Positions 12,005 through 55,721 of a stretch of DNA of 64,000 nt are shown in pieces. The stretch's first letter is position 1; each line of letters opens with the position of its first letter. This DNA is from Blasia pusilla (lineage: Eukaryota). The stretch is taken from NCBI GenBank assembly GCA_050084515.1, contig CM114271.1, forward strand, positions 44,268,001 to 44,332,000, in the 5' to 3' direction. Both the position numbers and the translations under genes were made by a program. The notes under the pieces are model-generated. The model saw nothing but the letters and a program-made list of their open reading frames with translations. It was not told the DNA's origin and did not search any database.

Positions 12005-12369
12005 GGGTTGCACGGGTACCTCGCCTTGTTATCCCAAGATGAGGGAAGCGTGCAACCCCCCGGTCTTCGATGGGTTGCGTGGGTACCTCGCGATGTTAGC
12101 CCAAGACAGGGAAGGCATGCAACCTGTCCGTCCCGGACAGGTTGCCAGGGTAGCTCGACTTGTTACACGAGGAGGACGTATGCGTGCAACCCATGGGTCT
12201 TGGGCAAGTTTCTGGGCAACTCGCCCTACATCCCCAAGACGCAGGAAGCGTACAACCCATCGGAGACCGTCAAGTTGGCCGTGTTTCCACGTCCAAAGTT
12301 CCATAACGGCCGACATGTCGCCGTTGGTACGACGGTGCAACCCAACGGTCAGCTCAACGGCTCAAAAAG

Positions 12370-21800: not shown

Positions 21801-21836
21801 CCTCCATTTGGGCAACCCCGCATATCCAACCAGGAT
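18836..21836 (-). mobile_element. Gypsy-type DNMT retroelement copy 2, internally deleted
   Basis: Protease (VLLDSGAQPL) joins directly to the pre-integrase linker at ~20707. Integrase (DFAG, TDQG, DGLAERVVQ) and a decayed PHD remain; MTase, RT and RNase H are absent. Confidence 0.9.
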
Positions 21837-27119: not shown

Positions 27120-28589
27120 GGGCAGAAGTCGCTCATTTCCGGTTTCTCATTTCACGATCTTCATTCCTCACTCCTCACTCTCCCGCGCAGGAGCTGATCA
27201 GATACGAAGGGGCATTTCACGCGGCGACACATCGCGAGTCGATAGGAGGGAACGAGAGCGAGACGGTTCGACGGAGCGATATCGGGACGATTCGAGCTAA
27301 CCATCAAGGCGAGACGAGCTCCCATCTCGACATCAGCAAGGCGACTGATCAAGGGATTCGTCGTGGACATAGGCGGAGGCATTTCTGGCAAAAATGACGA
27401 GGAAAAAACAAAGCCAACAAGTCCGGGAGCTTCACTCCCAACTCCATTAGGACTCATGCGTCAGCTTCTCCTGCGCCTCGTTTGGCGAATGAAATTATGC
27501 AGTAGGAAATCGAGGAGCGGGAAAGGGAAGCGGAGATGCACAACCAAGTGCTTCTGGCGAGACGTGTTCAAGCGGCGCTAGATAAACAGAACGAAGAGGC
27601 CGAGACGTCGCAGGCCTTGAAGAAAAGGATCGCCGATGAAAAGAGAGAAAAGAAGCGTCTAGACGCGTCAGTGAGTAGGGCGGAATTGGCTAAAGCGAGG
27701 CGGGAAAAAGCGATAGCCATTGACGATAGCCCTGCCCGTCCAACCGCAAGTGTTGAGATGCGGGAAATGTCCCCCACGAAGTCCGGGGACACAATCAACA
27801 TAGTGGAAACAACACCAGTTCAAATCGATGACGACAAGGTCATGAGGACCGCCAGCGTGGAGATGGTGGACATGGCGGAAGAAGCCGGAGAGCGGTCATT
27901 CTCGACTCCAAGCCCGGCGGAGGACATCGACCTCTATCGGATCGAGGAGTTCCTGGATCGATTTGCCCCTGTCTCGGACAAGTTAGTGGTCAAGAAACCG
28001 ACTCCATTTTCGAAAGCGGTAAGAGAGGTTTAGGTTTTTTAATTATGTGAATTGCAATTCATTGGGATCTCGGTGTAGCTTATTCCTCTTGTCCTTTCGA
28101 CGGTGGTAAAGCCGATGGCACTCATGGAGGGCCCAACGCCCGAGGATTCCACTCTGCCGATTAAGGACAATGGAATACGTCCGCGAAATAAAATCCGACG
28201 AGGACATCGCAAAGCTAAAACAATCGGCGGTGACATCATCCTCGTGGGACAGTTTTCCTCCCTTCTATGTTCAGCCTTACGACGAGCATGGAACCCGAGC
28301 TCAGTTACCGAGGAGGACTTGGAAAATCTCGACACATTCGGAGGATGCGAGACCAGGACTTTGAAGGCAAGTTGAGGGCACGGAATTCAGCTGGATGAGA
28401 AATCTGCATTTCTTCATTTGGGATGGAAATCACAGGTTCATGGCGTGGACCAAGTTTGGGGAGGAGCGCCCCAACTCATTGGAGGCACAATTATGCGTGA
28501 AGGCAGTGGTCCTTCACCCATACCCTCATCACATGGCGACGGTGGAGATGGCAATGCATGCCATGAACACGTAAGTATCTTTAACACTT

Positions 28590-29250
28590 TCGCAACTCGT
28601 CGGACTCCGACGAGTTGCTCGATTGATGAATGGGTTAGGTTTGTTTAGGCAGAAAGCAACTCGTCGGACTCCGACGGGTTGCTAGACTGCACGGTTTTCC
28701 GGATGTTTTTTTAAGATTGACACTCGTCGGACTCTGACGACTTGTTTGATTGAACATAGATTTAACTAGTTTTTGGCCCAAAGCAAACTGTCGGAGTCCG
28801 ACGGGTTGCTCGATAGGCCGCCTTGTGAGGTTGTTTTTTTAAGAAGATTGCAACTCGTCGGACTCCGACGACTTGTATGATTGAACATAGATTTAACTAG
28901 TTGCTGGCCCAAAGCAAGCCGTCGGAGTCCGACGGGTTGCTTTGGGGCAAAAACCTTCTAAACATGTAGTCACTCGAGCAACTTGTCGGAGTCCGACGAG
29001 TTGCATTCTTAAAAAAACAACCTCACAAGGTGGCCTATCGAGCAACCCGTTGGACTCCGACGGTTTGCTTTGGGCAGCAACAACTAGTTAAATCTATGTT
29101 CAATCATACAAGTCGTCGGAGTCCGGCGAGTTGCAATCTTAAAAAACATCCGAAAAAGCGTCGATCCAACAACCCGTCGGAGTCCGACGAGTTGCTTACC
29201 TGGCATTAGCAAATCTGAATGCAACCCGTCAGACTCCGACGGGTTGCGTC
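28590..29250. repeat. Intronic palindrome array forming a long fold-back
   Basis: About 12 palindrome copies. Spacers are also inverted duplicates: 28802-28840 vs 29011-29049, and 28860-28902 vs ~29083-29125. Confidence 0.9.
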
Positions 29251-31429
29251 ATTTAGCTTGTTGCTAGAATCCGACCCTGAAGCATGGCGACCGTCGAGTC
29301 CGGCGGGTTTGCGAGGAACCCATGTAATTTCGACGGGTTGAGTTTGGATGTGCGAGATTGTATCGGAGGGAATGTCACCCACCATTGGATCGGATGCGAT
29401 CGGGTGAGGAAGGTGCTTACGACGCACCCGTGAGAGTACAGGGGGTTCTTGGGCGATGCCCTCGTCAATAAGATGCTTGCAAAGGGTGCTCAGATTAAGA
29501 AGAAAACTTGGGCAAACAAGTCTATTTCTCAAGATGCAGCCGTAACCATCCTTTGGTGGTCGAAGATACAGGCCGTGAAGAAAAGCGCCGACCGAGTGGA
29601 GCGGAGGGAGAAGGTATCTCGCCTCAGAGCGCCAAATTCATCAAGCTCCAGATCTCTGCAACGAAATACACGGCGAGCAAGATGCAGCGATACATCAACA
29701 TTCTCAACCCCGAACTTGGTCCGAAGTTCTACCAGGAGCTCAAGGCGATTATCAAGCATCAGCGGAAGAGGGATGAAGATCCGCATGGTCGGATTGGGGA
29801 GAAGTGTGTCGGATCGCGTGCATCGTTTTGCGTTATCCGGGATTAGCGAGTTCAGGAGGATACGATCGATGAAAATCGATCTCGAGGGCTTAGAGGCCCG
29901 GAAGAGGGCGGCACACCATCCTCGGGTGTGTCCGATCCGATGATCTCGCATTGGCTACGCGAATGGGCATTATGGGACGCGTTGCGGGTAATCGGGAAGT
30001 CCGTGCTGGACGGTCTGCAAGCGGAGCTCAGAAGATTAGAGCCCATTCCGCCAGAAGCAAACCTTGAAAGTTCTGGAGATTACGAGGTTTGGCTCGACGA
30101 CATCCGGGACAAGCCAACCAAGAACCCTCGATTCAAGACCATGTTCAAGGTTTGCGTCCTCCCTCGTGAGCTTGACGAAGAAGTAGAGGGTAACAAACGG
30201 GATCAAGCGAAGAAGAAGCGAGATCTGACAGAAGCAGACGGCCGATAATGTTCGACTAAAAGCGCCCAACGGATGGTATTCGGTACCTCGTCGGTGTAAG
30301 AACGCAGTGCGTGGGGAAAATTACCGGTAGCCTTGAAATTGTGGGCTTTACCGCCGGATGCAGAGACATTCTCCATGTACGACGTGGAGATGGGTCAGCA
30401 CATGTCGGATTGGAAGGTGGAGAATTGCCCCATTTGGCTCGACTTCAAGCGACCACTGAAGACATCACGGATAAGGACTTACGAGTGCTTCATGATGCAG
30501 TGGCCTTAGGACAAGACGACATCCCCAATTTTGTCGGCTGAAGACTTCTTCGGAGGAGATGCGAGAAGAGCAAGCCCACGAGACAGTTGAGTTGGCTTCC
30601 AAGGTCCGGACAGACCAAAGACAAATCCACAAATGGGTCTCTAAGGCAAGCGAGGAAGGGAAAAATTCAGAGGCCGAGACTTCCCAAAGAGAGCCTGAAG
30701 ATGAGAGGCCGGAGAGGCGGAATCGTCCGGACGAGCAGGAGAGAGGGTCGGACTAGGTCTCGGCCAAGAAAACGCCACGAATCCGAGGTCATAGAAACCC
30801 GACAAGCCGTCCCGGACTAGGGAGAAGCGGAAGCGAGAGGTGCCGGGTTGTCCCAAGGAGAATACAGACCCATCATCCTTGGGAAGACACAGACAAACAA
30901 CGACCGGACAAGCGTCCTCCTTGATTCACCTCTTTCTTGGATGAGTGAACGGCTTGATTCTCAAGCGTCAGCGCCATCGAAAAAATTGACAACGCTGGGA
31001 CGGAAGCTCCAACGAAATGGGCACGCTGCCTGGGCGGTGAATGGAGTGGTGGAAGAGGTTGCGGTGGATCTCTTGATCGCCGATCTGCCCCTGGTGGTTG
31101 CGACTTTGGGGCGAAAATCCGGCGGACGAGGTACCTGAGTGGAATGCCGCTCACTTATGACCGATTGCACTTTTGTTCTCCTTTGCGACGCCTATCGAGT
31201 GGCAGGGTCGCTTCTTGGTGTTGATTTGGAGGGAGCGAGGACGAGCTCTTCAACCTCCGGTCGTCAAGAGGTCGCTAAAGTGGAGGACGGCACAATCATG
31301 GATCATAAAAACGAGTACCCACTCCGATCCGCAACGAAGTCGATTTGGGTAAGGCTCAATTCTGTACAATAATTTCAATTATCTTATAATGATGTGTAGA
31401 ATGAGAGTCGATGCCTGGGTTTTTTCCGC

Positions 31430-31795
31430 GAGCAACCCGTCGGAAGGCGACGGGTTCTTGGCTTAGAGCAGCCCATGCTCGGCTGAGAGCAACCCGTCGG
31501 TTTCCGACGGGTTGCATCTTTCCCACATACACAGGGAAAACCGCGGTGTACTTGCAACGGTTCCGGCGGGTTGCGGTTGATTTTGGTTTTGGATGCAACC
31601 CGTCTAATAGCGGCGGGTTGCTATCGACGGTTGCTCAGGCGAGCATGGGCTGGTCTGAGGCAAAGCAACCCGTCGCCTTCCGACGGGTTGCATCCGAAAA
31701 CCAAAATCAACTTGGAAAACCCAAAAGCAACTGCAATCCGTCGGGTTCCGACAGGTGGGTCTGGGACAAAACAACCCGTCTGACTCCGACATGTT
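31430..31795. repeat. 27-bp palindrome cluster in the last intron of the cargo gene
   Basis: About 7 variants between the GT donor at 31349 and the exon resuming at ~31871. Confidence 0.85.
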
Positions 31796-34255
31796 GATCC
31801 AAAGTCAGTTATTGAAAATCTTCTCAAGGCGACTTCTTTAGTTTCTGACATTGTTTCGTCTTTGATTCTGGATGGACCACTCCTACGTGTACTGCTTCGT
31901 TCGGCCCGAGCACAATTTCCAAGTGTTCAAGATCTAGGATCCTTTGGATCCATGCTCAGATAGGTACAGCTTAGATAGTTTGTACAATTCCCCCCCGGGA
32001 ATTTACATGCAAGACAGTACCCCGCTTCTGGGAGGAAGGGAAAAGTCGCCAGCCTTGATGCAAACGCTCATCGAGCTCTGCTCAAGGCCGGGTGACTTGG
32101 TGTTCGACTTAGTGGTCCTTTCAGGGGCGAGTATCGAGGCGCTGGCGAGTGGCAGGAACATTCTCGCCTCGAGGAAGGCAGAAGCTGTTTGACCTTTGCA
32201 AGGAGGCAAAGCGTAGAATCTGAAAGGCTCGTTGGGGCGTACAACTCTCCCACGGCCGAGAGCTCGGTTCGAGCCACCCTTGGTAGTGACTCCATCGTCA
32301 CTTCCAACGATTCCCAAAATCGGGAGGGCAAGGCCGAAAGTGATTTTGCAAGAGCTCTCAGACGATGACGAGTGAGTTCAAAGAACTCAAGGACCCAGCT
32401 TGACTGCAGCGTTTGGAGTAGGGAGTTTTTTGATAATTTGGCAAAAGATTTCATAGAATAGATCAAATGTACAGTTCCGAGCTTTTTTCGGATGATATAA
32501 AGCAGAAGATTTTTTCGATCGATGGTGGTGCTTGTAAATGTTTGGTGATCATTTTGTCTTTTCGAATGTGATCGTCTATGTACTCCACGGTCTTCTACTT
32601 TGCAACCCGTCAGATTTCTCCTGCTTGCAATTTTCACTTTATGACCATTGCAACCCGTCGGATTTCTCCTCCTTGCAACTTTTTGCTTTTGACCATGGAC
32701 CCTTTTACCACCTCCAGGTAACGTGTCGATTCCGACAGGTTGCACGATCGGACCCTTTCGGATCGGCGATCTGGCGGGCTTCTTCCTGGCACCCTCCCCT
32801 CAACTCGTAAAAAGGCGGCGTGGCGTCTTTTCTTCTCTCTCAGGCGTGTTGGATTCCTTCTACCTGTGCGGTTGCCATAGTGGTATTACCGGGGACGGAG
32901 GAGATATTGATACTGGATGGGTGTCACATTGCAGAGCGTACAAGGTATACTGCCGAGGAAGGCGGTGGGACTCGAGAAAGGTTACTTGGGACCGTTATGG
33001 TGTACCTAGGGGGGGCCAAGGCTCTCGAATTCGCCAACATTTTCGATCCCCGTCTACAACCGGCCAGAGGAGCCACTTGAATCCCAGGACATTCCTTTGG
33101 TACTGTCACCGAGGAGAGTTAGGAGTAAATTTGTAGATGACGAGGCTGAAGAAATCATAGACTAGGTTCAATGTACATTTCGGAGGTTCCTTAGGAGGTA
33201 ATAAAGGACGAGATTTTTTGAACCCATAATGGTGTTTGTAAAAGTTTTCTGGAATATGTTTTGGGACTTGTGGAGATGGTGCAAGAGAAAGGCCTAGGAG
33301 CAGGTTGTCCAAGAACAAGTCAAGAAGATTGTACAAGGTGATAATGCAGCCAAGTCACTCCATTGACCTCAAGCCTAGAGGAGACAAGGGAGATGGTGTA
33401 GGCACTAGGGAGTCTCAGGGTATCCAATGAAGGAGATAGAGTGCTTGATTCTTTGTTGTAGAGGAGGGTTTGAACCAAGGGGTGGATCTGATTGTTAGGG
33501 CCAAGAAATGAAGAATAAGGGGCTAAGAAGAGGTCAATGGAGGCTGAGCTCAAATGCTTGGACTCTTGTGGGCTAGAAGATTCCTCATGGAAGCCTAGAG
33601 GACCTCATTTGAAGGCCATAAAGCTTGAGAATCCAAGGGAGAGATCTATGGAGTTGAGAGGATCAAGGAGTGATTTTTGGAAGATTTGTGCGAGGTGGAG
33701 CTAAGTGGAGGTGTGAAGGCGAGGGCGGGGCTCGAAACAGATTGAGAAGAAGCAAGCATGGGAAGAATATAGAGGTAGATCTCACCTTCAAGCATGTCCA
33801 AGAGACAGTCGAGCCTATGCCATCAATGTTGCTCAAGAGGCTTTAGTTAGGGCAGGTTGAAGTAGATGAGGTAGAAATTTGGTCAAGTAGATGCCTTGGA
33901 GTAGATGATTAGGGTTGGCATCCGGGTGGTCCTCCAACAAAAATACCAAGGGCACTGCTTTTTGTTGACCGAGATGAGGAGATGTTAAGAAACTTAGGCT
34001 CACATGGAGAGTGATGGAAAAATGTTTGTAGTGGTCTTATGATGTCTACTTTTTTTTCGCCCCAAGGAAAAAGGAGGTTTTTTTAGGGCCAAATGTGGAC
34101 CACAACCTACTCTCTTCTAAAGATTTAATGGATTTGAAAGCAAACAGAAATTTCAAATATGTCATAAAGTTTTGAAGAGAGGAGGCGGATTTGGCCCTTT
34201 TTTTTTGAAGAGAGACTCTCCTCTCTTACTCTCTCCTGCCAGAATACCAGCCCCC

Positions 34256-35230
34256 GACGATGGATGTGTCCCAGATGTACATAGAGTAGGTAGTTCTTCA
34301 TTCTAACTTGTATCTTTGACATGGATGACAAGAAGGCAACTTACGATGGGGCCATATGAGCACCTGGCCTTCTTGCTCTTAACGTCGAGAGATGTATCTC
34401 ATAGTAGGTAGGGATAGATGGCTATCTGGAGTTGGAGGGACCTAACCACTAGCTAGGGGGGCGATTGGAGATATTTTGGTACTTCTTGTCTCGTTGTTTG
34501 GATGCCATGAGTTAGCATGGGATCGTGCGTGTTTGTGTGTGTGTTCGGTGACAACGATGTATGTTGTGTAGCGATGTGAATGCGCACGAAGATTTTCACG
34601 TCTTTTAGGATATATCGGTGAGATCTAGTAGAGCGCCTTCGTGAGAAGTGGTGGACAGGCTCAGTTGGTCGAGGATGACCTGCTAAGGCCCCGGAAGCCT
34701 CAGCAGGTCATCGTTTCGGCTCATTTGGAGCCATATTTAGGAACTTAATATTTTAGATAAGTATCATTTTGAGTATATGATCCACTTTCTATTTTTGGTA
34801 AATGATCCTTGACCTTCTACATCAGGTCAAGAGCCAAAGAGGTGACTTGGGAGCATAGGTTACCATGGAGAGAGCTTGGGAGAGGGGAGGGGTCCCAAGC
34901 TCAAGGAGAGAGAGCTTGAGAGCTCATTCTCTCTTTGTTGAACCTCTTGGCATGAGGCGGCAGAGCTATGGTCTTGCTTGTCTTGTGTGTGTAATCCAAT
35001 CCTCTCATTAGGAGAGTGGGTTTGGGTTTGACATTGAGAGACACATGTGAGAATGCACACATGTGAGAACTATAGTGTTGTGAGAGAGATTTGATCTTTT
35101 TTATTGGAGATATTCTGGTAATTCTTGTCTCGTTCTTTGGATGCCATGAGTTAGCATCGCATCATGCGTGTTTGTGTGTGTGTTCGATGACAGCGATGTA
35201 TGTTGTGTAGCGATGTGTATGCGCACGACA
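34256..35230 (+). mobile_element. Gypsy-type DNMT retroelement copy 3 (end of PHD, 3' UTR and B1-A2-B2 end)
   Basis: RWMCPRCT-stop, purine tract aggggggcg, B1 34464-34591, A ~34594-35102, B2 35103-35230 ending ...cgaCA. Confidence 0.9.
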
Positions 35231-38200
35231 ACTACGTAGCCGTTGACGTTGCTTGTGTTGCCGTCTATGTCCTCCACAACTTTCGTCCATCGATGCCGTC
35301 CGTCCGGATCCGTGGACGGCTACCTAGTGCCATTCTTGCACCATAAAAAATAGGATGGTGGATGTTGTGGACCGCTGATTTTGCGATCTTTACCCTGGCC
35401 GCTGGTGTCACATTGGAGGAGTCCAACAACGATGTGACTGGGAGTACTATCCCGGAGGCTAGGTGATTTGTTGGATTGATGGGGTCCGAGTGTTCTTGTC
35501 ACTTTGCTATGTTGTGAGTTGGTAGCCGCTCGAGGACGTTTGAGTACCATACGGTGATGCCAATAGCAGCAACGCGCCGCCAATTACCGCGTTGTGCTGC
35601 TCGTGGCCGTATCGCACCGTCTCGATCATAGATCCGCACCATCATTGGAGCAGAGGGTGTTTTGCTATTGAGGAGGGTATGTTTTTGAGTGCGACACCTC
35701 ATTACCAAATGCTGTGTCGGTTGTAGCCGTTCCGTGCCGCCAGTGCCGCACCTTACCGCTGGACCCGCACCGCACATCGAGGAGTATTGAGCATCGTTTG
35801 TACCAGAGGAGTACGACTTGCTGATTGGAGGAGTGTTTCTTCATGATTGAGTTGGGATCAAGGTTTGCAATTGCTGAGGAGCGATCAATATTTGTTCGGG
35901 TTACCCATTCTAGTCTTTTGCCCTGCACGTGTTGGGGAATTTTTGGGTATTGGGTGGTTATTTGGGGATATTGGGTTCCGTGTGGATGTTGAGACGTGTG
36001 TGGGATGTCGAGAGTTGAGGGTATGTTCTGTCGATGAGATGATAGGACAATAGCCAATTTTCCGCACCACGCCGCTTGTTACCGTAGAGCACACATCTTA
36101 GTGAGAGAGTGAAGATTGGGTGCCCCATGTTAGATTGAGTGATTGAGTGATTCCTTGCAAGGTTGGGAGTGATTTCGTAAGAGGGGTATGAGGGTCATCA
36201 CAGCATCCTTTTGGGACTTTGAGAGGCGAGGTGGTGGACCTGAGAGTAGCTCTAGAGGGTTTACTCGGAGTGGTGCGAGGTTTCGAGGGTCTCCACGTGA
36301 GGGACTATCACGATCTCCTTCTATGTCATATTCAGATGAGGGAGAGAGTATAGAGGAGTTTGGAAGTGCATCACCGCATATATTGAGTGGTCCTACCACT
36401 TGGGCATACGAGATGGACGACTGGGATAAAGGATCGCACAGGTTTTCAGGTGCTATAGGCACTATAGAGCTACACAACTTCATTGCAGATTTAAGGAACT
36501 CTAGAGAGTTCAACCCATTCAGAGCATGGAACGGTATGATCTAGCATTTAGAGGGGGTGCCCACGGACGACTACCATGAGTTATCCCACAGATATGCCTA
36601 GGAGATCAAGGCATGGCGACTCTACTATGGTCCAGATTATGTGTCATGGACTGAACCATTTCCCAATGAGGAGGAGAAGTCAAGAGGGACCTCTTCCTCT
36701 TCCGCGAGAGATGTTTTAGCAGGGGTAATACTTAACTTGTAGTGGAGCATTTGCACCGTCCAGTCGGGTTTGTCCTAGGTTCAACCCCGTGGTTGAGTTC
36801 TTTGTTGAGTTGCGTACGAGCTACGAGCGGGTACAAACGGAGAAGTTGCGGAGCATCCCGACTTCCAGAGGCGCCGGGTGAGAGTTTGCATGAGGGCTAT
36901 CCCCGCTTGCGCCGGTTGATTAACGTCACTCAGGGGGTGATAGAGGCTCAGGCTATTCAGTCATGATACACAATGCTGGATCGGACCATGCAGACACAGA
37001 TGCGGGAGGGGGTGCTTCTTATGAACACCTCACCCACGTTGAGAGATATTTTTAGGACCGTCGAGAACATTGAGCGCAACATGGTGGAGGAGAGCATAGC
37101 CACCAGGAGTTCTGGGCGAGAGCAGCCAAGAGTATCTCCACCACCAATATAGGAATGTGGATTCCGAGAGAGGATTGTGGCACCACGATCACATGGAGGT
37201 TATGGAGAGCCTATGCCACAAAGACCCATGCCATTATATGTGACAGAACAGCAACCGATAGGTATTATTTGTTGGGCATGTGGTGGATCCCATCACCAGC
37301 CCGATTGCACTCGTCAAGGTCATGGACGTGTGCCTCATCATGGAGGAGGGGATGGTGCTACACCAGGAGGATATGAGTGTGACTATTGTCAGAGGTATGG
37401 TCACACACGCTTCATGTGTTTTAGCCTTCATCCAGAGTTACGTCCAGACCAAGGGCCAGAGAGGGCACCAGAGCGAGTAGCTGGTCGAGGTGGGCGTAGA
37501 AGTCGTGCATCAGGTGGTTCCGTTGGGGGACCAGGAGCTGGAGTTTCCCGAGGGGGTGGTGGAGTTTCCCACGGAGGAGGTAGAGTTCCACCACCTAGAC
37601 GCGTCCAGGGAGAGGTTGAGCGTGAGTCTGGGATGGCTACTTAGGTACAACAACTATAGCAGCACATTGCCGCTATGGCATTGAGGTTACCCGATGCCAC
37701 ATGCGTGGCATCGGCATCTTATGGAGGATCCTGGTTGGATGTGCAGGGTTGCCCATATGGAGACCGTTGCTCTTGTTACACGTGGAGCCATTGTAGAGTT
37801 GGATCCACAACGAGGGGAAGCCAGGAAACAGACCAGGCTTCCTGAGTCTTTCAAATTGTCCGAGGCGATGAGGACCCAATTGATGGGTCCTGATGAGAGT
37901 TGGTGATGTAGTTGGTGTGTAGGCACGGAGAGCAATGGGAGAAGAGAGTGCAACAACTCCTATTGCTGATGCTCAAAAGGATCATGTGTCGAGCATGTTG
38001 TTGGGGGCGACCACGATGGTGTACCGTGCTCCTTTATTTTTTGCTTCCGATGTTATGACGTTGGGAGGTACGCTTGTCAAGGTTTTCCGGCTGGCCGCTA
38101 CGCTATGTGAGCAAGGAGTTGGTGTTTTTGTGTCATACTTAGGGGTGATTGCAGAGGAGATGAAGGACCTGCCCCTGGAGCCTATGCTCGGGCCGTCCAT

Positions 38201-39548
38201 GTCAGATTCATGGCAGGCTGCGGCTACTAGGATGGCAGAGATGCCCGCTAGACCCGCGATAGAGGGCGCCATGGCTTCTCCCGGTGTTGTATTGCTGGAT
38301 AACAAGGAAGAAGTGTCCCTGTAAGTGAGTCTATGAGGTAGAGTTTTTAGACCGTAGCGTGTCTCGTTGGATTCAGGAGCGCAACCCTTGAGGTTGGGTT
38401 AAGCGGCATTCAAAGGATTGGGCTTGCCGAGAGCCGATGTGGAGCGTTGTCCATTCCAGATATAGACATCCTTGGGTGGAGCAAATACCACAAAGTAAAT
38501 CACCCGACATGAGGTCGTGGTGAGGATTTTCCTGGGACATCCTACACATGATTCCATGGTGCGAGCCAAGGCGATAGTGACCAATGCAGAGTCCTACGAA
38601 GTCTTGGTTGGTGGAGCAGTTTTGTACCCGATGGGATTTTCCCTCGATTACAAGGAGGAGTCAGCGTCCTACAGGCCACGATGGCAGTCAAGTGATTGGT
38701 GCCTTAGCTCATTACCCATTTGAATCATCAGTGGAGTGGTTGAGCGACGGCCAAGAGAGATGGCGATCTTAGCAGCATTTAGCGGCGCCATCACTTGATC
38801 TAGTGATTTGATTGAGGGACATGTCCATGCAGAGGACACTCCCATTCTTGACATTTCTATAGAGAGGAGTGTCATGATGGCCGCATCATTCCATGGAGGA
38901 GAGGTGCCGCTTTGGGGCTCGACTGAGGGGCTTTGACGGAAAGTTGTTGAGCATGTGCAGACCGCGTGGAGCAAGACATTTGCATCGAAGCATGACGGGT
39001 CAGAGGACCCCGAGGTAGCCGAGAGTGCTATGATGACGCCCTCAGATACTACACTCATTGTGTGGCGCATCCTATAGGAGGATATTCGTGTGTTGGATCT
39101 CTTTGGAAGGATTAGCAGAAGTTTAGTTGTTGTTTTGCAGGCAAGAGTATGCGTGCAGCAGTACCTGTATGTGGAGATTGATGATTTTGCGAGGCGCGCT
39201 TTACTTCACCATGTGGCGCAATTACGCCTCCAATTTCCTGACTTGTTGTCTACGTCCGCCATCCAGGGGTTCCATAGTTCCCAGCCAAGGGAAATTTTAC
39301 TGCTAGGGTTGTAGGACTTAGAGCGGGTACGGACCATAGATTTGGTCATTGTTGGTTGGCCGTGTTAGGACCAGACGAGTGTTGGACGAGATAGCGGATT
39401 AGCTAACTCTTGGTCTAGGTTGTTCTGGGAGATGATGCGGATCTTGCGACACTTACAGGAGCATCAATCTCATTCTCCAGCATACATTCTAGAGAATATG
39501 CCGATTTTGGGCGATTCGAGGTCCCGCGTCGTGACGAGTACACAACAA
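35231..39548 (+). mobile_element. Gypsy-type DNMT retroelement copy 4 (5' UTR, gag, protease, first half of the C5-MTase), heavily decayed
   Basis: Homologous to 54400-50270. Zn-knuckle-like CWACGGSHHQPDC and CDYCQRYGHTRFMC, protease LDSGAQP at ~38367, MTase VLDLFG / GWPC / LEN at ~39090-39500 with many stops. Confidence 0.9.
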
Positions 39549-39549
39549 C

Positions 39550-40077
39550 TCACATAGTCATATCTTCGTGACTAAACCAATTTTGTCCGCTTCTATAGTA
39601 GTCATGTAACTCTACTCTTCTAGTCATAGTACATGACTACATGAGGCCATACCAACATTTCAATAAAATAAAATGACTACATGAGTTGCCAACTATAACT
39701 GAATGGAGTATACTTGGTGCATTTTGATAGGATATTCTAAACTTTTGCGCACCAACCATGACTAAAGGAGTCGTTGGTGGTAACTAGAAAAATATACACA
39801 TATGACTAGATGAGTCGTACTCAAGTCCACATCATCATTCACATGTCACAACAATAGTCCATGTCATCAGTGACACATCACACTAAATAGTCCATGTCAC
39901 TGATGATGTGTCATTATTCCATGTCATCTAAGTGACGTGTCAGTCATGGCCTCATGACTACATCCTCAGGTCATATACCAACCTCCATCTAAGCTGACCA
40001 TCCTAGTTAGCCTAGTTGCCAAACAAATATGACTTGGCTTTTGTGTCTAAAGTAGTCGTCAGTCATTGTTAGTGGTG
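39550..40077. mobile_element. Possible CACTA-like terminal fragment
   Basis: Short subterminal motifs repeated in both orientations (catgactac / gtagtcatg), ending in tagtggtg (reverse complement CACCACTA). No partner end seen. Confidence 0.3.
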
Positions 40078-45456: not shown

Positions 45457-46230
45457 TGTCGGGCGCATACACATCGCTACACAACATACATCGCTGTCAT
45501 CGGACACACACACAAACACGCATGATCCCATGCTAACTCATGGCATCCAAACAACGAGACAAGAAGTACCAAAATGTCTTCAATTAAAGTAAGATCCAAT
45601 CTCTCTCTCCACCATCTCACACCATAGCTCTCAAAGGTGTGCACTCTCTCTCTCATGTCAAACCAAACCCACTCTCCTAATCAGAGGCTTGGGTTACACT
45701 CACAAGGCAAGGTACCATAGCTCCGTCGCCTCATGCCAAGAGGTTCAACAAAGAGAGAATGAACTCTCAAGCTCTCTCTCCTTGAGGTATACCCCTCCCC
45801 TCTCCCAAGCTCTCTCCAAGGTAACCTATTCTCCCAAGTCACCTCCTTGGCTCTTGACCTGATGTAGGAGGTCAAAGGCCACTTACCAAAAATAGAAAAT
45901 CGATCATATATTCAAAATGGTACTTACCTAAAATAGTAAGTTCCTCAATATGGCTCCAAATGAGCCGAAACGAAAGAGAAACCTGCTCTCTCAGGTTTCC
46001 TGGGGTCTCAGTAGGTCATCCACGACCTAGTGAGCATGTTCTCCACTACTCACGAAGGCGCTCTATTAGATCTCACCGATCTATCCTAAAAGACGTGACA
46101 GTTGTCGTGCGCATACACATCGCTTCACAACATACATCGCTGTCACCGAACACACACACAAACACGCATGATCCCATGCTAACTCATGGCATCCAAACAA
46201 CGAGACAAGAAGTACCAAAATATCTCCAAT
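45457..46230 (-). repeat. 3' terminal repeat block B1 (46103-46230), A2 (45585-46100), B2 (45457-45584)
   Basis: B1 and B2 are near-identical 128-bp direct repeats. A2 matches 55208-55721. A 2-bp spacer (46101-46102) separates B1 and A2. Confidence 0.92.
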
Positions 46231-46410
46231 CGCCTCCCTAGCTGGTGGTTAGGTCCCTCTAACTCCATATAGCCATCTATCCCTACCTACCATGACATAC
46301 ATCTCTCGGACGCTAAGAGCAAGAAGGCCGGGTGCTCATGTGGCCCCATCGTTAGTCGCCTCCTTGTCATCAATGTCACAGACACAAGTCAGAATGTAGA
46401 ACTTCCTACT

Positions 46411-47700
46411 CTATGTACATGTGGGACACATCCATCGTCCCTGAGGAACCCTAGTGAGAGCAGGCGTCAAACATGCCATATGCCATCCTCTCGAACACCC
46501 ATCACAGACTAGCATCGTGGCCGCACCACGGGCAGAACCACACAACATACAACGCAAGCCTGCAGGAACTACAGCTAAGCTCGGATCTACTGTACCATCA
46601 ATATTAGGAAGGTGACATGGCGCACAATTACGCACATGGTCCTTCCATACCATACCATCGCGTCCCTCCAGCAAGAGAACACCCGATGGCAAAATGTCAC
46701 GCACTCTCAGGATAGTGCGCCTGCGATCACATCCAACGCCGTCGTCGGTCGTCTAAATGCGATGCAAGTAGACATAATCTCCCTGATGAAACCTCCGGAT
46801 AGTTGGTCGATAACCACCACCCCGAATAGTCGCATACCTCAACGTATCCCGATGTTGTGCAATCGCCAAGTTCTCGAACGCCATGGGCATCATTCTCCAA
46901 AATAACTCAGCCCTCTGAGAACATGCTCGCACCCATACATCTGGGTCATCAAGGTTCAACACCTCACCAGCATCTCGACGAATGGCCGCAGGTAAATCTG
47001 GCTCTCGGCCATAAAGTAGCAAGTACGGTGAAAAAGACCCTAAGGATGCCTACCTGCTGAATTTGTATCCCATCGCCAATTGGAGGTCCCAATCTCCTAG
47101 GTGACCTCTCTGCAAGCCATACTTGCGTAAACCCCTCTTCACCGTCTGCACAACTCTCTCCGCTAATCCATCCGCCTCCGGATGATCTCGCGAAGTCGTG
47201 CGGTGGTCGATCAGCGCCTGATCACACAAGGCTTGGAACTGACCGCGAAACTCGGTACCTTGGTCTGTCAACACCTCAGCCGGTGCACCATAATGACTCA
47301 CCACTCTATCAAGGAAGGCATAAGCTACTCACTCACTCGCTTTGTCAGGCAATGCAACCAACTCGATCCACTTCGAGAAGTGCTCGACCATCACCAACAC
47401 ATAACGACCGTGGACGCTTCGCCGTCAGGGCAAAGGTCTGCAAAATCCAAACTCCATCTATATCCTAAGCCCATGATCGGTAATGGATGCAATCGGAGTC
47501 GGAGCATTGAACGATACTCGGACCCGATCACACACCATGCACTGGCAACAAACTGCTGAACGTCGTCTGCATGCCTCGCCACCAATACTGAATCTGGAGC
47601 AAGCTGTACGTCCGCTTCACCCCAAAGTGACCCAACTCCTCGTGGGCATGTTGCACTAGTCGTGCTCTCTGCAAAGGATGCGGCACTACGCATACTCTGC
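46411..47700 (-). pseudogene. DDE integrase with C-terminal PHD finger
   Basis: HEELGHFG (HHCC region), WSLDF, VLTDQGTEF, HPEADGLAERVVQ, and PHD CMLCGS..MLVCDGCSRGWHMACLTPAL..VPQGRWMCPTC (C4HC3). Confidence 0.93.
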
Positions 47701-48029
47701 CATCCTCCCAAACCCTCAAAACATGTGTCCCCTCCCAACGGAACCGTCTAGCCCGCTGTAGGATAGGATCCCGCTCTCTAGCATCCACGGTGCACGCAAC
47801 GCTCCCAGTACGAAGGTACTCCAAGACAAATCCATCATCATGAATATCTCGGCCACTTGCCGTGTCTTCACTGGCCTCGGGATCCAAGGACTCTCCACTA
47901 GACCTCGCCATCGAAGTCTCCACACTCTGGCACTCCATAGCCAACATGCCTAAATAGGCCGACGCGTGCCATCCTGGCACCGACTCCTCATCACTCTCTC
48001 CATGCCATCGAGCTCCAGTCGCATCTCGC

Positions 48030-49330
48030 TGACTCGGGCATGGGTTATGACTCAACCTATCTGCATCTTGGTTGAGCGTCCCAGGTCTATGTACCACCTG
48101 AAAATCATACTCCTGCAACAACAGGCCCATCTCGCAAGCTTCCTGTAAGCTTGCCGGACTCCATCAACCACTTCGGTGGTTGATGATGTGATGATGGTAA
48201 GGGGTTTCCAAATAAGTAACACCGAAATGCGCGACCCCACACATGACCAAGCACTCACCCTCATACGAGTTGTACTTTGCCTCTGCGGCGTTGTTCGAGT
48301 GGCTAGCGTAAGCCACTCTGAACTCTCTACCCTCATCATCATCTTTGGGTGAGCACCGCCCAAGCCCCAACATGCTCCAATGTGTGCAATCTGGAAAGGA
48401 TGCCCCGATCGGTCTCCTCAAGATGGGTGCGGACGTCAACTTTGTCCTGAGCAATCGAAATGCTCGCTCTTGCTCATCCCCGAGTGCCACTCGTGATCCA
48501 CCTTGGTCGCAAGGTCGGACCATAATCGAATCGAATCCCTTGACATATCGCCGATAGAAGTTGCCAATCCCATGAATGCGTGAACATGGCTCACATCCGT
48601 AGGGCGTGGAATGCGTGAGATAGCCTCTACCTTTGTTTTTGAACACGAAGGCCCCCTGGGTATATCGTATGACCCAAGTACTCAATCTGGTCGTAGAAGA
48701 ACTTGCACTTGCTTGGATGTTGCTTCACCCATGTAATTGCAATCGTCAAAACACCTCCTCTAGATGTTGCTCATGCTCCTCAACCGTGGCGCTAAAGACT
48801 ACGATGTCATCAATATAACACCTAGCAAAATCCGGACCACCAAGATCCTATCCATGACCCTTCGAAACTCAGCCGGGCGTTCTTTAACCCAAATGGTAAG
48901 AACCGCCTTTGGTACAAACAATCCTTCCCGTGAGGATCGATGCCCCAAAATGCCGTCTTCTTCGCTTTTGTCCTCCAATCGATAGGTGATGGTATCCGGC
49001 TCATAAATCAATGAATCAAGACCTTTGCGTGACCAATCGCATCAAAGATCTCCTCGAGGGGTGGGCATGGCATACCTATCGGACTTCGTGCGCCGATTGA
49101 TAGGTCGGTAATCCCCACACATCCGCCTATCCGTCCAGTTGCCATGCACATTCTTCTTGGCGGGCATGATAGTGGCGGATGCATACTCCCCATGCAACAT
49201 CTCCACTAGTCTGCTCCGACCAAGTCCTGGCTCCTACTCGAATCGAGCCCTCTCCATATCACTTTGCACTGTAGGGTCGCGGAAGATCGGCATATCACTC
49301 GAAAACTCAATGCGGATCCCCGATCCCTTT
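48030..49330 (-). pseudogene. Reverse transcriptase + RNase H (many frameshifts)
   Basis: EEIFDAIGHAKV, KTAFWG, FLPFGLKNA, yIDD-like site at ~48805-48820, RVAYASHSNN..KYNSYEGEC, LLLQEYDFQVVHRPG..N.DAD.LS. Confidence 0.9.
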
Positions 49331-49774
49331 AGCGCACCCAAATCCTCCTTGCTAAACGCAGCGCTCTTATAACTCCCGAGGCGATGTATTGGCGCCGCTC
49401 TCCTCCTGTCAACTTAGGGCCCATATCGGCTCCCAAGTCTTCATCGTGACTACGGTAGGACTCTCGGCGTGGGTATCGGTGGTTGCTATGGTGCAACCCC
49501 GTCTCGAACAACAACACTCGGCCGCTCTCCTACAGCCAACTGCAAACTCTGATCTCCTCCATGTGCAGTGCCCGAAACCACGCTCGATGATGTGGCTATC
49601 ATCTCCTTGCGTACCTGCAAAACATCCCAAGAAGTCCAAGGGTGTCTCTCCCGATCTCCCCTGGTGCGTAGATCTCCTCGGGTCTTGCCCCCAACCACTG
49701 CCTCCACCGTCTCGATAGGCATGGGGCTCAACAACGCAACCGTTGTGATCTGTCGCGATCTCATACGACGCTGC

Positions 49775-50720
49775 TCAGCTGAGGATCCATGTCAAGCAGT
49801 TAAGGTCCATCGCCTTACCCAAGACATGGCGTCGTGATGCCTCTGACACTGATGGTACTACCGTCACTCCTGTGAGACATCCCATCGCTCGCTCTCTCTC
49901 GTTGGCGTTGGGCTCCACCAACCGCTGAACCTGGTCATCCCAAACCAAGCCAGGACCGGCCTCCTTGTATGCATAGGAAGCGGGAAAACTCACAAACGTG
50001 GGCAAGGCTACCCGCGGCCTGCCTACCCTGTTGACCATAGTCAACGGTGGTCGATCATCGTGCCTCACTGCCTGGGATTGACGACCTGGATCCAGAATGG
50101 AATCCACTAACAAATGGGAGGGGCGCTCCACTCTCGGATACGCCCTCCATAACACCGCATGGGGCACCAAGTTGGTCCACCATAGACGCGGGCGATGGGC
50201 TCTAGAACCTACACCCGCCGCATCCAAGAACAATGTTGGGCCGATCCAGGCACGTACCTGATGAGCACTCATCACCACCCGTGACCTGGAGTCTCCTAAG
50301 ATAGGCACATTCTCCAGAATGTAGGCTGGAGAACGAGACTGGTGCTCCTGCAACTGCCGTAAGACCCTCAACATCTCCCAAAACAACCTAGATCGAGTGT
50401 CATCCAACCCGCTGCCTCGTCCAGCACTCGATTGGCCTTGACATGGCCAACCGGAAATGACCAAATCAATGGTCCCTACCCGCTCTAAGTCCTGCGCCTC
50501 CAACAACAAAATATCCCTCGGTAGGGAACTCGGTATCCAGATCTGCGGACGCACAATAAGTCGGGAAAACGAGGCGTAATTGCGCCACATGTTGTAGTGA
50601 GACGCGCCGCAACATCATCACTCTCCACATACAAATCTTTGTTGTACTCGCACTCTGCTGCAAAACAACAGCTAACCCGGTGCTAATCCCTCCAAAGAGA
50701 TCTAACACTCGAATACCCTC
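49775..50720 (-). pseudogene. C5 cytosine DNA methyltransferase domain, DNMT3-like, inside the pol region
   Basis: Motif I IRVLDLFGGISTG, IV DLVISGWPCQ, VI YILENV, VIII AHRPRLWWTNL, IX ERERAMG, X LGKAMD. Frameshifted between motifs I and IV. Confidence 0.93.
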
Positions 50721-51058
50721 CTCCGGGGTACACCACATAATGGGTGTGGTATCCAAGGGAGTCATCGTAGCACTCCCTGCTACCTCGGGTTCCTCAGACC
50801 CGTCACGCTTTGGTGCAAATGCCTCGCTCCATGCGATCTGCACGTGCTCATCTGCCAATCGTTGAAGCTCCTCAGTCGAGCCCCACAACGGCACCTCTCC
50901 TCCACGGAATGATGCAGCTACCATAACACTCCTCTCCATAGAAATTTCAGGAACGAGAGTATCCTCTGCATGGACATGTCCCTCAATCAAATCACTAGGC
51001 CAAGTGATGGCACTGCTAAATACTGCTAAGGTCGCCATCTCTCCTGGCCGTTGCTCGA

Positions 51059-51565
51059 TCACTGCACATGTGAATCGAACGGTAATGAGCTAAGGCGCCC
51101 ATCACTTGACCGCCATCCTGGTTTGTAGGACGCTGACTCCTCCCAGTAATCCAGGGAAAACCCCATCGGGTATAACACTGCTCCACCAACCAAGACGTCG
51201 TAGGACTCTGCATGAGTCACTATCGCCTTGGCGCGCACCACAGACTCATCTTTAGGATGTCCTTGGTGAATCCTCACCACGACCTCCTGTCGGGTGATAT
51301 ACTGTGTGGTACTTGCTCCACCCAAGGATGTCTGTATCCGGAATGGACAACGCTCCACATCGGCTCTCGTCAAGCCCAATCCTCTGAATGACGCTTTCCC
51401 CAACATCAAGGGTTGCGCTCTTGAATCCAACAAGACGCGCTGCGGACTAAAAGCTCTACCTCCAGGACTCACCAACTGGAAGACCTCTCCTTGGTTACCC
51501 AGCAACACAACACTAGGAGAAGCCATGGCACGCTCTATCGCGGGTCTAGCGGGCATCTCCGCCAT
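51059..51565 (-). pseudogene. Retropepsin-like aspartic protease
   Basis: VLLDS(R/G)AQPLMLG (DSG in copies 2 and 4) and the downstream YDVLVGG motif. Confidence 0.85.
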
Positions 51566-52049
51566 CCTAGCAACGCGACGCCATGAATCGGCGTGGACGG
51601 CCGGAGCATCCGCTCCAAGGGCAGGTCCATCACCTCCTCTGCAATCACCTCTGAACGTGATGCAGGAACTCTAACTGTGCGCTCACATAGTGAAGCGGCC
51701 AACCGAAAAGCCTCGGCGGGCGTACCCCCCAACGTCATAACATCGGAAGCAGAAAATAAACGAGTGCGGTACACAACGGTGGCCGCCCCCAACAACGTGC
51801 TTGACACATGCCCCTCCTGAGCATCAACAATAGGAGTCGTCGCACTCGCTTCTCCCATCGCCCTCCGTGCCTGCACACCAACAACATCACCTCCAGGAAC
51901 TTTGATGAGGACACATCGATGGGGTCCTCATCGCTTCGGACAACGTGAAAGATTGAGGAAGCCTAGTCATCTTCCGGATTCCCTCATTTGTGGATCCAAC
52001 TCGTGGGCGGCTCCACGCAGCGTCTCAAGCCTATGGCAACCTCCATCTA

Positions 52050-53700
52050 GGCAACCCCGCACATCCATCTAGGATCCTCCAGATCTCTGGCTGCTCCATA
52101 TGATGTCGATGCTACGGATCCGGCATCGGGTAACCTCAATGCCATAGTGGCAATCTGCTCTTGTAGGCTGCCAGATTCGGCGACCATCCCGACCTCACGT
52201 CCGTCTCTCCTCGGCGCGTCTAGGTGGTGGTACTCTACCTCCTCCACGGACAGCTCCACCACCCTATCGGGCAACTCCAACTCCTCGTCCCCCAACAGGA
52301 CCACCTGGTGCACGATCTCTAGGCCCACCCAGACCGGCTACTCACTCTGGTGCCCTCTCTGGCCCTCGGTCCCGACGTAACTCATGATGTAAACTGAAAC
52401 ACCTGGCGCGTGTATGACCATACCTCTGACAATAGTCACACTGATAACCTCCTGGTGCAGCACCATCTCCTCCTCCATGCTGAGGCACACGTCCATGACC
52501 CTGACGAGTGTAATCGCGCTGATGATGGGCTCCACCACATGACCAACAAGTAATAGTAGGCGGCTGCTGCTGAGCCGCCTACTATTACTTGAAGGCACAT
52601 GTCTCTGTGGCACAGCCTCCCGGTATCCTCCCTGAGCTCGTGGTGCCACAGTCGACCTATCTCGGAGTCCACGTTGCTGCACAGGTGGTGCAAACAATCG
52701 TGACTGCTCTCACCCTGAACCCATGGTGGCTACGCTCTCCTCCGCCATGTTACGCTCAATGTTCTCGGCAGTCCTAAAAACATCTCTCAACGTAGGGGAG
52801 GTGTTCATAAGAAGCACCCCCTCCCGCACCCGTGTCCGCAGGGTCCGGTCCAACATCGCGTACCATGACTGGATAGCCTGAGCCTCTGTCACCCCCTGAG
52901 TGACGTTGATCAAACGGCGCAAGCGAGTGTAAGCCTCACGCAAACTCTCACCCGGGCGCCTTTGGAAGTTGTGGATGCTCCGCAACTTCTCCGTCCGAAC
53001 CCGTGGTAGCTCGCCCTCAACTTAGCAAAGAACTCAACCACAGGGTTGAACCTGGGACGAACCCGACTAGACGGTGCAACTACTCCCGTGCAAGTGACCC
53101 CTCCTAAAACATCACTAGTGGAAGAGGCAGTAGCCTCTCATGACTCCTCCTCCTTATCTGGGAATGGCTTCGTCCATGACACATAATGTGGGTCATAGTA
53201 GAGCCTCCACGCCTCAATCTCACATGCATATCTCTGAGAGAACTCATGGTAATCGTCCATGGGCGCCCCCTCTAAATGCTGGAACATACCATTCCATGCT
53301 GTAAATGGGTTGAACTCTCTAGAGTTCTTGGCCCGCTGGGAGTCGCACCAACTCCTAAACTCTGCTATAAAATCGTGCAACTCAATCGTGCCTACTGCAC
53401 TGAAAACCTACGCGGTCCTCTACCCCGGTCGTCCATCTCGTACGCCAAACTGGTAGGACCACTCACAATATGTGGCCATGTGCTCACAAACTCCTCTACA
53501 CCCTCCCCCTTGTCTGACGATGACACAGAAAGAAGTCGAGGTGGTCCCTCACGTGAAGACCCTCGGAACCTCGCGCCACTCCGCGTTCCGCGTAAAACCT
53601 CTAGAGCTACTGTCGGGTTCACCACCTCGCCTCTCAAAGTCCCAAACGGACTCCGTGATGACCCTTGTGCCCCTCTCACCCGATCTCTTTGAACCTCGTG
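52050..53700 (-). pseudogene. Gag-like region
   Basis: FQRRPGESLREAYTRLRRL (retrotransposon gag QxxxES motif) and two Cys/His knuckle-like motifs matching copy 4. Confidence 0.8.
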
Positions 53701-55207
53701 AGGAATCCCTCAATCACTCATCCCAAACATGCGGCATTCGATCTACACTCTCTCTCCCCGAGACGTGTAACGTGCGGCAACACGCGGCGTGGTGCGGCAA
53801 ATCGACCAGGCTACCATCTCATCGACAACCTACCCTCAACTCCAGACATCCCACACAAGTCTATGTCCCCTAAACCACATACATAAATGATGCTCTCAGC
53901 ATCCCCACACCCAATTTCCCCAAATAAATCCCAGAATCCCTCACACATGTAGGGTAAAGGACCAGAATGGGTAACCTGAACACATGTCGATGTTGCTCCT
54001 CAACAACTGCAAATCTCGACCCCAACTCGATTGTGGAGACAACTCCTCCAATCATCAAGTCATACTCCTCCCGTACTGACGCTGCTCAAAACTCCTCGAT
54101 ATCTGATGCGGTCCTCAAGGAACAGTGCGGCGTTGCGGCGACTAAGGCGGCTTTAACGGCACGACCCTCGATGGTGGGATGCGGCACTCCGCGGCATACC
54201 CTCCTCAATCAACAATAAACCCACACTCTGCTCCACAATGACGGTGCGGCTCTGCGATCGAGACGGTGTGGTACGGCCACGAGCGGCACGACGCGACAAT
54301 CGGCGGCGCGTTGCGGCTACGGGCGTCACGGCACGATACTCGATCGTCGTCGAGCGGCTACCAATCACAACATAGCAACATGAAATCAAAACTCAAACGC
54401 CATAATCGAGGTCATCTGCCATCACTGGTTGATGAAGAAACTGCGATGATGGTGGCGGCCAAAACAAAGTACGTGGTGGCGACGCAAGTCAAGGAATCAA
54501 CGAACGTCGTGGAAGACCCTCCACTCCGTAATGGCGGCAATGGCACCCAAAGGGTGGATAATGGACGGTGGACCGTTGACAGTGACGGTTGACCGCTGAT
54601 GGTGAAGGTTGACCGTTGACGGTGACTATGATGGCGACAGCCGCCGCCGGTGTGGCGGCTGATTTAGGGTTTGCACAATTTAACCCTAAAAATCGCCTAG
54701 TAATGGAAGTTTTACAAGATTGACCATAACTTTTTGCTCGCAACTCCAAATTATGCATTGTTTGTTGCATAGCGTGCACAGCTTCACGATCTAGGCCAGC
54801 ATCAAAAAATATTTAGAATCGAACATTTCAGTAAAAATTGACGGGGACTGTTGTAAAGCCCAATGTCGCTTTCTCCTACACAAAATTTGGCAACGCTTCC
54901 GCGCTGATTTCTCCCAACGAAAATGTAAAATCTGTAAAAATAAAAATCAGCAAGCGAGAGCACCAGCATGGGGCAACCCGCCCCCATACTCAATCCCTAT
55001 CAAAAATTGGGCAACGCTTCCACGCGCCACTCTTCCACACGAAAAATTGGCAAATGCAAAGAATAATGAAAGCAGCCCTTGCTCCGGTGAGCACTCCCAT
55101 GAGCCGCTGAACGGGGAACACGGATCCCCAACCTGCAAAAACAGCGAGTGACCAGCAAGCTCCCCCGTGAAGCACTCTCATTCTCTCATTCTCTCATTAT
55201 CTCTTTA

Positions 55208-55721
55208 TAAAGTAAGATCCAGTCTCTCTCTCCATCATCTCACACCATAGCTCTCAAAGGTGTGCACTCTCTCTCATGTCAAACCAAACCCATTCTCTTA
55301 ATGAGAGGCTTGGGTTACACTCACAAGGCAAGGTACCATAGCTCCGCCGTCTCATGCCAAGAGGTTCAACAAAGAGAGAATGAGCTCTCAAGCTCTCTCT
55401 CCTTGAGGTATACCCCTCCCCTCTCCCAAGCTCTCTCCATGGTAACCTATTCTCCCAAGTCACCTCCTTGGCTCTTGACCTGATGTAGGAGGTCAAAGGC
55501 CACTTACCAAAAATAGAAAATCGATCATATACTCAAAATGGTACTTACCTAAAATAGCAAGTTTCTCAATATGGCTCCAAATGAGCCGAAACGAAGGGGA
55601 AACCTGCTCTCTCAGGTTTCCTGGGGTCTCAGTAGGTCATCCACGACCTAGTGAGCATGTTCTCCACTACTCACGAAGGCGCTCTATTAGATCTCACCGA
55701 TCTATCCTAAAAGACGTGACA
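55208..55721 (-). repeat. 5' terminal repeat A1 (514 bp)
   Basis: Direct repeat of 45585-46100; about 14 substitutions and one 2-bp indel by manual comparison. Not followed by a B repeat. Confidence 0.95.

Follow-up and report, generated by a model that had tools for sequence, protein, structure and literature searches.

Split direct repeats, in which a retroelement starts with one repeat part (A1) and ends with B1-A2-B2, have counted as a sign of retroelements with a tyrosine recombinase, whose replication has only been modelled. The order A1-coding-B1-A2-B2 is that of the PAT-like and Ngaro elements and of SymbioDIRS-Dnmt3 (PMC4157794; PMC5890265; PMC7192593), the last of which is described as A-coding-B-A-B with a tyrosine recombinase (PMC5890265). 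In one legend line of the same paper, De Mendoza et al. (2018) also record that KnitGypsy-Dnmt3, a gypsy element with a Dnmt3 from Klebsormidium nitens, has DIRS-like repeats, which are called 'the same as that of a DIRS retrotransposon' (PMC5890265). Here we analyse an element of this kind from a stretch of 64,000 nucleotides assigned to Blasia pusilla (assembly GCA_050084515.1, contig CM114271.1, positions 44,268,001 to 44,332,000 of the forward strand), which as a whole is referred to as the window. The element, on the minus strand at window positions 45457-55721, is a Ty3/gypsy-type retrotransposon with a DDE integrase and without a tyrosine recombinase, for which we propose that the inserted copy is a circularly permuted form of the reverse-transcribed DNA (cDNA).

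The window element is a further member of a kind already in print and barely described, the gypsy-Dnmt3 elements with DIRS-like repeats. As in KnitGypsy-Dnmt3, a Dnmt3-like methylase is carried inside a gypsy-type Pol; the two differ in that KnitGypsy-Dnmt3 has Klebsormidium as its host, whereas the nearest relatives of the window element are from liverworts and mosses. With the PAT-like, Ngaro and SymbioDIRS elements it shares the order of the repeats, and with SymbioDIRS also the possession of a Dnmt3, but those elements use a tyrosine recombinase where the window element has a DDE integrase and 4-bp target-site duplications (TSDs). The PAT-like, Ngaro and SymbioDIRS elements are not known to have a protease or a DDE integrase, and elements with the DIRS order are not known to make TSDs. 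TOC1 of Chlamydomonas, with one repeat part at its left end and B-A-B at its right, is classed with the tyrosine-recombinase elements.

An earlier reading of the window, made from the sequence only, had taken the layout for a hallmark of PAT/Ngaro elements that here stands outside that group. The split repeats are indeed genuine on a gypsy element with TSDs, yet the combination was not new, as the legend line on KnitGypsy-Dnmt3 had already recorded it (PMC5890265). The main-text passages of that paper covered here give no TSD, end sequences, primer-binding site (PBS), polypurine tract (PPT) or mechanism for KnitGypsy-Dnmt3, and the bryophyte members, TSDs, end sequences, self-priming PBS, PPT position, internal palindrome and permutation argument presented below are absent from these passages. 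A literature search did not retrieve the name KnitGypsy-Dnmt3 outside PMC5890265, and the passages of PMC11982613 that contain Marchantia retrotransposon, DNMT3 or Gypsy terms mention no such element.

Repeat layout in the window and in a related family

As delimited by repeat comparison, the element consists of repeat A1 (514 bp; 55208-55721), a coding part of about 9 kb, repeat B1 (128 bp; 46103-46230), a 2-nt spacer (46101-46102), repeat A2 (516 bp; 45585-46100) and repeat B2 (128 bp; 45457-45584). The A copies are 96.9% identical over 516 aligned columns and the B copies 95.3% over 128 columns. A1, which starts with TGTCACG, forms the left end of the inserted element and B2, which ends with CGACA, its right end (TG…CA), with B1 ending in CACGACA; the flank sequence reads CTTC on either side, a 4-bp duplication at 55725-55722 and 45456-45453. 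A block B-A-B is found at two further places of the window, in copy 1, of which the 3' part only is present (8963-12005, minus strand; block at 8963-9735, with B at 9610-9735, A at 9090-9603 and B at 8963-9085), and in copy 3, of which the 3' end only is present (34256-35230, plus strand; block at 34464-35230, with B at 34464-34589, A from 34596 and B at 35103-35230). All three 3' ends in the window are of the form B-A-B and stop at the identical last base of B. The sequence-only reading had named the repeats, the ends, the TSD and both further blocks, all of which were recovered, and its caveat that the window holds a single 5' end of the family was equally borne out.

The layout was followed beyond the window in metagenome contigs, which were scanned with the methylase alignment and yielded 80 loci. 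A related family, referred to as family M (A of 339 bp, B of 112 bp, methylase about 68% identical to that of the window element), is present with A, B or flanks in 22 of these 80 loci. Each of its ten distinct 5' ends reads from the flank directly into TGTCATGACC, nine of them continuing from A into the leader and one from A into an internal deletion, and B follows or precedes A directly in none of the ten. At the 3' side, four loci have a complete B-A-B followed by flank (L014, L035, L040 and L060), one (L002) has B-A before the contig ends, and at five of the ten distinct 3' ends a lone B precedes the flank (L003, L015, L019, L037 and L018, which is the same place as L029). More distant relatives (L024, L028, L046 and L049-L058) have no usable repeats on their contigs, L054 being too decayed and nested for its repeats to be read.

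Two family M elements with both ends show A-int-B-A-B (int, the internal part), namely L035 with the TSD AAGG and L040 with CATA, and two show the shorter form A-int-B, namely L003 with TACA and L018 with CTTA/CCTA, a match at three of four bases. A perfect 4-bp TSD therefore brackets four of the five two-ended elements (that of the window, L035, L040 and L003), the chance of a single one being 1 in 256, and the TSDs lie outside A and B. Two identical long terminal repeats (LTRs) at both ends are found neither in the window copies nor in family M, where A stands by itself at the 5' end and B-A-B or B at the 3' end, and a canonical 5' LTR occurs in none of the copies examined; the split direct repeats A1...B1A2B2 of the PAT-like/Ngaro type are present in both. 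Hence A-int-B-A-B is the normal inserted form of the family and not a deletion variant.

Such elements are abundant in bryophytes. Standard LTR finders, which look for a pair of equal LTRs, would mis-annotate them together with their methylase genes.

Priming signals and repeat junctions

A TGG, as expected of a tRNA-type primer site, is missing within 30 nt 3' of A1, as the sequence-only reading had stated, and ARAGORN detected tRNA genes nowhere in the window and one in 24 loci. Instead, the leader directly 3' of A1 is complementary to A1 itself. In the window copy, leader nucleotides 2-15 pair at 13 of 14 positions with A 338-351, the primer-like stretch CTCATTCTCTCTTT (55371-55384, minus strand), and leader nucleotides 13-23, as we read the sequence, are complementary to A 338-348 at all 11 positions; the leader part at 55185-55206 (minus strand) is a putative PBS of the self-priming type. 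A TATA-like GTATAC, a predicted promoter motif, stands at A 309-314 (55408-55413, minus strand), and the corresponding site of family M, A 138, reads TATAAA, with leader nucleotides 1-21 pairing with A 159-179 and 16 exact bases in L035 and L042. Thus the leader-complementary stretch lies about 30 nt downstream of the TATA box in both families, the sequences differing and the place being alike. The match between leader and A beats 500 of 500 shuffles in five of the ten copies tested. The leader at 55178-55207 (minus strand) contains about three tandem copies of the 8-nt unit AATGAGAG, which is why the PBS-like complement occurs in several registers.

At the other side of the coding part, a purine run stands directly before B1 and not before A2, reading AGCTAGGGAGGCG in the window (46231-46243, minus strand) and ...AGCTAGGGGGGCGAG in family M. 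This PPT-like run precedes B1 in nine of the eleven family M loci listed and in the four window copies aligned; L018 and L029, which are one place, have other sequence at this position.

Self-priming has been predicted in plants for the Tcn1 clade, moss elements included, in the passages of Neumann et al. (2019; PMC6317226) that treat it. The window family resembles Tf1/sushi and the plant Tcn1 elements in the absence of a tRNA-type PBS and in bases beside the 5' repeat that are complementary to a region near the predicted start of the transcript (PMC6317226), whereas those elements have two ordinary LTRs and the window family split repeats.

As a putative PBS of the self-priming type abuts A1, priming is probably tRNA-independent and Tf1-like. 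Reverse transcription itself looks canonical, to judge from a PBS placed after A and a PPT placed before B. The suggestion of the sequence-only reading that replication takes a non-canonical and possibly tRNA-independent route is accordingly upheld for the primer, and less so for the reverse transcription that follows.

In L002 and L035 the border between B and A reads GACAGCTGTC, a perfect 10-bp palindrome (GACA-GC-TGTC), in which two putative integrase end-sites stand back to back; in the window copy it has decayed to GACA-AC-TGTC with the spacer AC at its centre. Every variant of spacer and flank (AC, AT and TA..TA) derives from GACAGCTGTC by C>T or G>A at a CAG/CTG site. A variable spacer might have meant that the junction is rebuilt in each cycle, an idea which we rejected because the variants are all C>T or G>A, the changes that dominate family-wide: over the whole element, members of the family in run X1 differ by C>T at 417 places and by G>A at 415, versus 28-183 for each other change. 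This excess is the pattern expected from deamination of methylated cytosine, in an element with a cytosine methylase of its own.

The A2|B2 border joins the end of A precisely to the start of B in four of the five junctions listed, as expected if two cDNA ends had been ligated, and the fifth (L039) has an insert of 16 nt, the first nine bases of which are PBS sequence. Differences between A1 and A2 that would locate a point of strand transfer were sought and none was found, which is what copying of both from a single template per cycle would give.

Locus L039 is rearranged at 4923-5819, where a piece of A in inverted orientation, reaching to the A hairpin, is separated by about 500 bp of unrelated sequence from the 3' half of A, after which the insert, ending with GCTAG as the PPT region does, is followed by B and flank. 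This fragment may represent a mini-element with an internal deletion or else an end-to-end junction formed aberrantly.

Both borders were also traced in public data, as contigs of two DNA runs and in two raw RNA runs chosen by species label, the indexed runs that carry the stretch including air metagenomes and none on record as RNA. DNA contigs and RNA reads span B|A as well as A|B, from which it follows that the layout is not an assembly artefact. The sequence beyond the start of A is heterogeneous in the public reads (agreement 0.41-0.47), and the RNA reads come from the sense strand of the element at about 10:1 or more. Among the best 15 of 233 joints, B1|A2 is crossed by 67 and 113 RNA reads in the two runs and A2|B2 by 12 and 11, and a joint of the B end to the leader is not found. 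B2 therefore seemingly lies outside most transcripts and would have to be regenerated from B1, and the ratio fits transcripts that end mostly inside A2.

A proposed permutation of the cDNA and competing explanations

The family presents the layout of the tyrosine-recombinase elements on an element inserted by an integrase with clear footprints, the TG..CA ends and the 4-bp duplications, and its priming signals are readable, so that the succession of steps can be worked out and put to the test. With a PBS at the end of A and a PPT at the start of B, ordinary reverse transcription of a transcript that would start inside A1 and end inside A2 would give a cDNA of the form (B+A)-int-(B+A). The inserted form A-int-B-A-B would then be this cDNA in circularly permuted form, with the opening in the 5' LTR at the border of B with A, where the integrase end-sites TGTC... 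and ...GACA stand back to back around the 2-nt spacer. The cDNA ends, that is the end of A and the start of B, would be joined, either as a 2-LTR circle or through host repair after integration, and the integrase would cleave after CA on both strands at the B|A site of the 5' LTR, which would leave two recessed CA-3'OH ends with 2-nt overhangs for insertion with a 4-bp duplication. Recessed CA-3'OH ends with 2-nt overhangs are the form inserted by retroviral integrases. Cleavage at the site of the 3' LTR as well would produce the shorter form A-int-B, which is also seen. To this reading, in which the integrase cuts an internal B|A site once the cDNA ends have been joined and the inserted copy is a permuted cDNA, we assign a rough probability of 0.45. 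The non-canonical step would then lie more probably in integration, at an internal site, than in replication.

Cleavage of palindromic junctions by an integrase is reported for foamy virus and HIV-1, where the LTR-LTR junction of 2-LTR circles is cut (PMC1180852; PMC1905944). The likeness lies in a palindrome formed by two adjoining integrase end-sites, the cutting of which gives insertion-ready ends; in those viruses, however, the LTR-LTR junction itself forms the palindrome and integration normally uses the linear DNA, whereas in the window family it would lie inside the LTR as defined by reverse transcription, hence the proposed permutation of the inserted copy. As a broader and more tentative proposal, to which we would give somewhat less than even odds, a plant gypsy clade may have shifted its two integrase end-sites, united in one palindrome, to a place within the LTR and may always insert a circularly permuted cDNA. 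If so, a retroviral-type DDE integrase would act as a site-specific cutter of joined LTRs, DIRS-like split repeats would follow from the position of the cut, whichever enzyme makes it, and PAT, Ngaro and TOC-type elements would owe their split repeats to a common and testable logic. Relatives of the element are present in Marchantia, a transformable model plant.

Several observations weigh against the permutation. The form A-B-A-int-B, which is expected from a 2-LTR circle cut at random, is seen at none of 11 5' ends, and an extra asymmetry must therefore be assumed: either cutting would always occur 112-128 bp from the left cDNA end and only sometimes at the other site, which would give A-int-B-A-B and A-int-B only, or copies of the form A-B-A-int-B would collapse fast by recombination of A with A. 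The circle, the linear cDNA and the transcript ends are all deduced from sequence, and the start of transcription is placed solely by the TATA box and the complementarity, the exact form of which has decayed in five of the ten copies tested and the A part of which is deleted in L003 and L008. The counts of RNA joints come from the best 15 of 233 at 85% likeness, pooled over many family members. B x B deletion at a later time could have produced the A-int-B copies, which would then not be primary products, and all copies examined are old with broken frames, none of them showing the state at insertion.

The asymmetry of the forms seen is what a DIRS-like restoration of the ends without a circle would explain, which makes it the main rival. 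Here the transcript would run from inside A1 to inside B2, B1|A2 would template the outer ends on a linear cDNA in a role like the one played in DIRS-1 by its internal complementary region (ICR), and the integrase would insert the linear A...B cDNA in the ordinary way. Indeed B1|A2 holds exactly both outer ends side by side, A-int-B-A-B without A-B-A-int-B is accounted for directly, some RNA reads do span A2|B2, and the DIRS model with its requirement for an ICR is set out in the relevant passages of PMC7192593. However, this route has no role for the PBS-type complementarity at A1 or for the purine tract at B1, the positions of which it leaves unexplained; a minus strand primed beside A1 cannot give a cDNA that ends in B, the TATA box lies well inside A, 138 nt in family M and 309 nt in the window, and the reads across A2|B2 are six to ten times fewer than those across B1|A2. 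We consider it unlikely, at roughly one chance in five. Schemes of reverse transcription in which the minus strand is primed where A2 starts, or the template is switched from B1 to B2, were dropped, as they predict an LTR that equals B or need transcripts that contain B2.

Less probable still is that A-int-B is the primary product, made when both internal sites of a linear cDNA are cut, and that the extra A-B is added by a secondary event, A-int-B-A-B being a replication-competent minority. The single B at half of the distinct 3' ends of family M and the A-int-B copies with TSDs of their own speak for it. Yet an A-int-B copy cannot provide the 3' R and U3 for the next cycle, a deletion between the two B copies of A-int-B-A-B yields the same product, and a second adjacent insertion as the source of the extra A-B is excluded because B1|A2 has the 2-nt spacer only and no internal TSD. 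We regard this order of events as improbable.

The sequence-only reading had itself named what would overturn it, namely canonical LTRs of A+B followed by a PBS, with the window copy having lost its 5' B and B1 being a private internal duplication. The single 5' end in the window left room for this; the three B-A-B ends there, the absence of A+B from all ten distinct 5' ends of family M, two further full copies with the same layout and TSDs and the absence of a joint of the B end to the leader among the best 15 of 233 make it very improbable. That the repeat-rich region was collapsed or misassembled hardly deserves credence, for although the window is dense in nested repeats, the same layout stands in independent metagenome contigs, and contigs of the two DNA runs as well as raw RNA reads cross both junctions.

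Encoded proteins and other repeats of the window

The element encodes, in this order, gag, protease, a Dnmt3-like methylase, reverse transcriptase (RT), RNase H, a DDE integrase and a PHD finger, all on the minus strand. The gag-like and protease-like part is degenerate here, a region of broken frames at 51059-53021; this region of the window copy has no Pfam match, and the aspartic protease domains PF13650 and PF13975 are seen in relatives only. Searched with Pfam as three sense frames in which stops were translated as X, the element matches the C5 cytosine DNA methylase (PF00145; 49775-50614), a weak RVT_1 as an RT remnant with RT_RNaseH_2 and RT_RNaseH (48176-49041, frameshifted), Integrase_H2C2 and the DDE core rve (47179-47671, in two frames; rve at 44.4 bits versus a cut-off of 32.6) and a C-terminal PHD finger (PF00628; 46417-46551), the coordinates of RT/RNase H, integrase and PHD finger being converted from residue positions. 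RVT_1, RT_RNaseH_2, Integrase_H2C2 and rve stand in the order of a gypsy Pol, in the window element as in its intact relatives. The tyrosine recombinase Phage_integrase (PF00589) has no match in the three sense frames at E<=0.1 and was not found in the intact relatives at E<=0.001, and the three antisense frames match no Pfam family at E<=0.01. The view of the sequence-only reading that a DDE integrase and not a tyrosine recombinase is present is in agreement with this six-frame search.

For the methylase, the closest solved structures are DNMT3A/3B (E about 1e-6). The closest matches among proteins come from liverwort and moss species, namely Calypogeia fissa (70%), Marchantia polymorpha (62-68%) and Sphagnum, which points to a bryophyte host, probably a liverwort, and does not support Klebsormidium as the host. 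Intact relatives carry the same set of domains, and the window copy, with its broken frames, is old. A SymbioDIRS-type element of dinoflagellates had been considered and was dropped, as a tyrosine recombinase is lacking and liverwort and moss proteins are the nearest. The K. nitens proteins P0094 and P0095, which have the Pfam domains RT, RNase H and integrase, are 45% identical to the relative P0030 over about half its length (E about 1e-205) and rank above generic gypsy matches among those listed. They count among the closer relatives of the clade and are candidates for proteins of KnitGypsy-Dnmt3.

Within the clade, the position of the methylase varies, as it stands before RT in the window element and in P0030 and between RNase H and integrase in P0040; in P0036 the interval between RNase H and integrase has no PF00145 match at E<=0.001. 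Many relatives have the PHD finger and lack the methylase. The window family differs by its terminal PHD finger from the Tf1/sushi group, which has a chromodomain.

A further copy of the element in the window, copy 2 (18836-21836, minus strand), is internally deleted and breaks off inside B1 at the border with another repeat family, near position 74 of B. This second family, of at least 6 kb, has two copies on the plus strand (12593-18838 and 27403-34258), which are 73-90% alike in the segments found. Its right end abuts different internal positions of the gypsy-Dnmt3 copies (18836 and 34256), so that it was apparently inserted into them. A diverged relative of the element on the plus strand (35494-39551) covers element positions of about 1330-5455 at 75-81% DNA identity; truncated on both sides, it begins about 264 bp past the 3' end of copy 3. 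Tandem repeats are located at 2177-2644, with two units of 234 bp at 93% identity, and at 28579-28941, with three units of about 130 bp.

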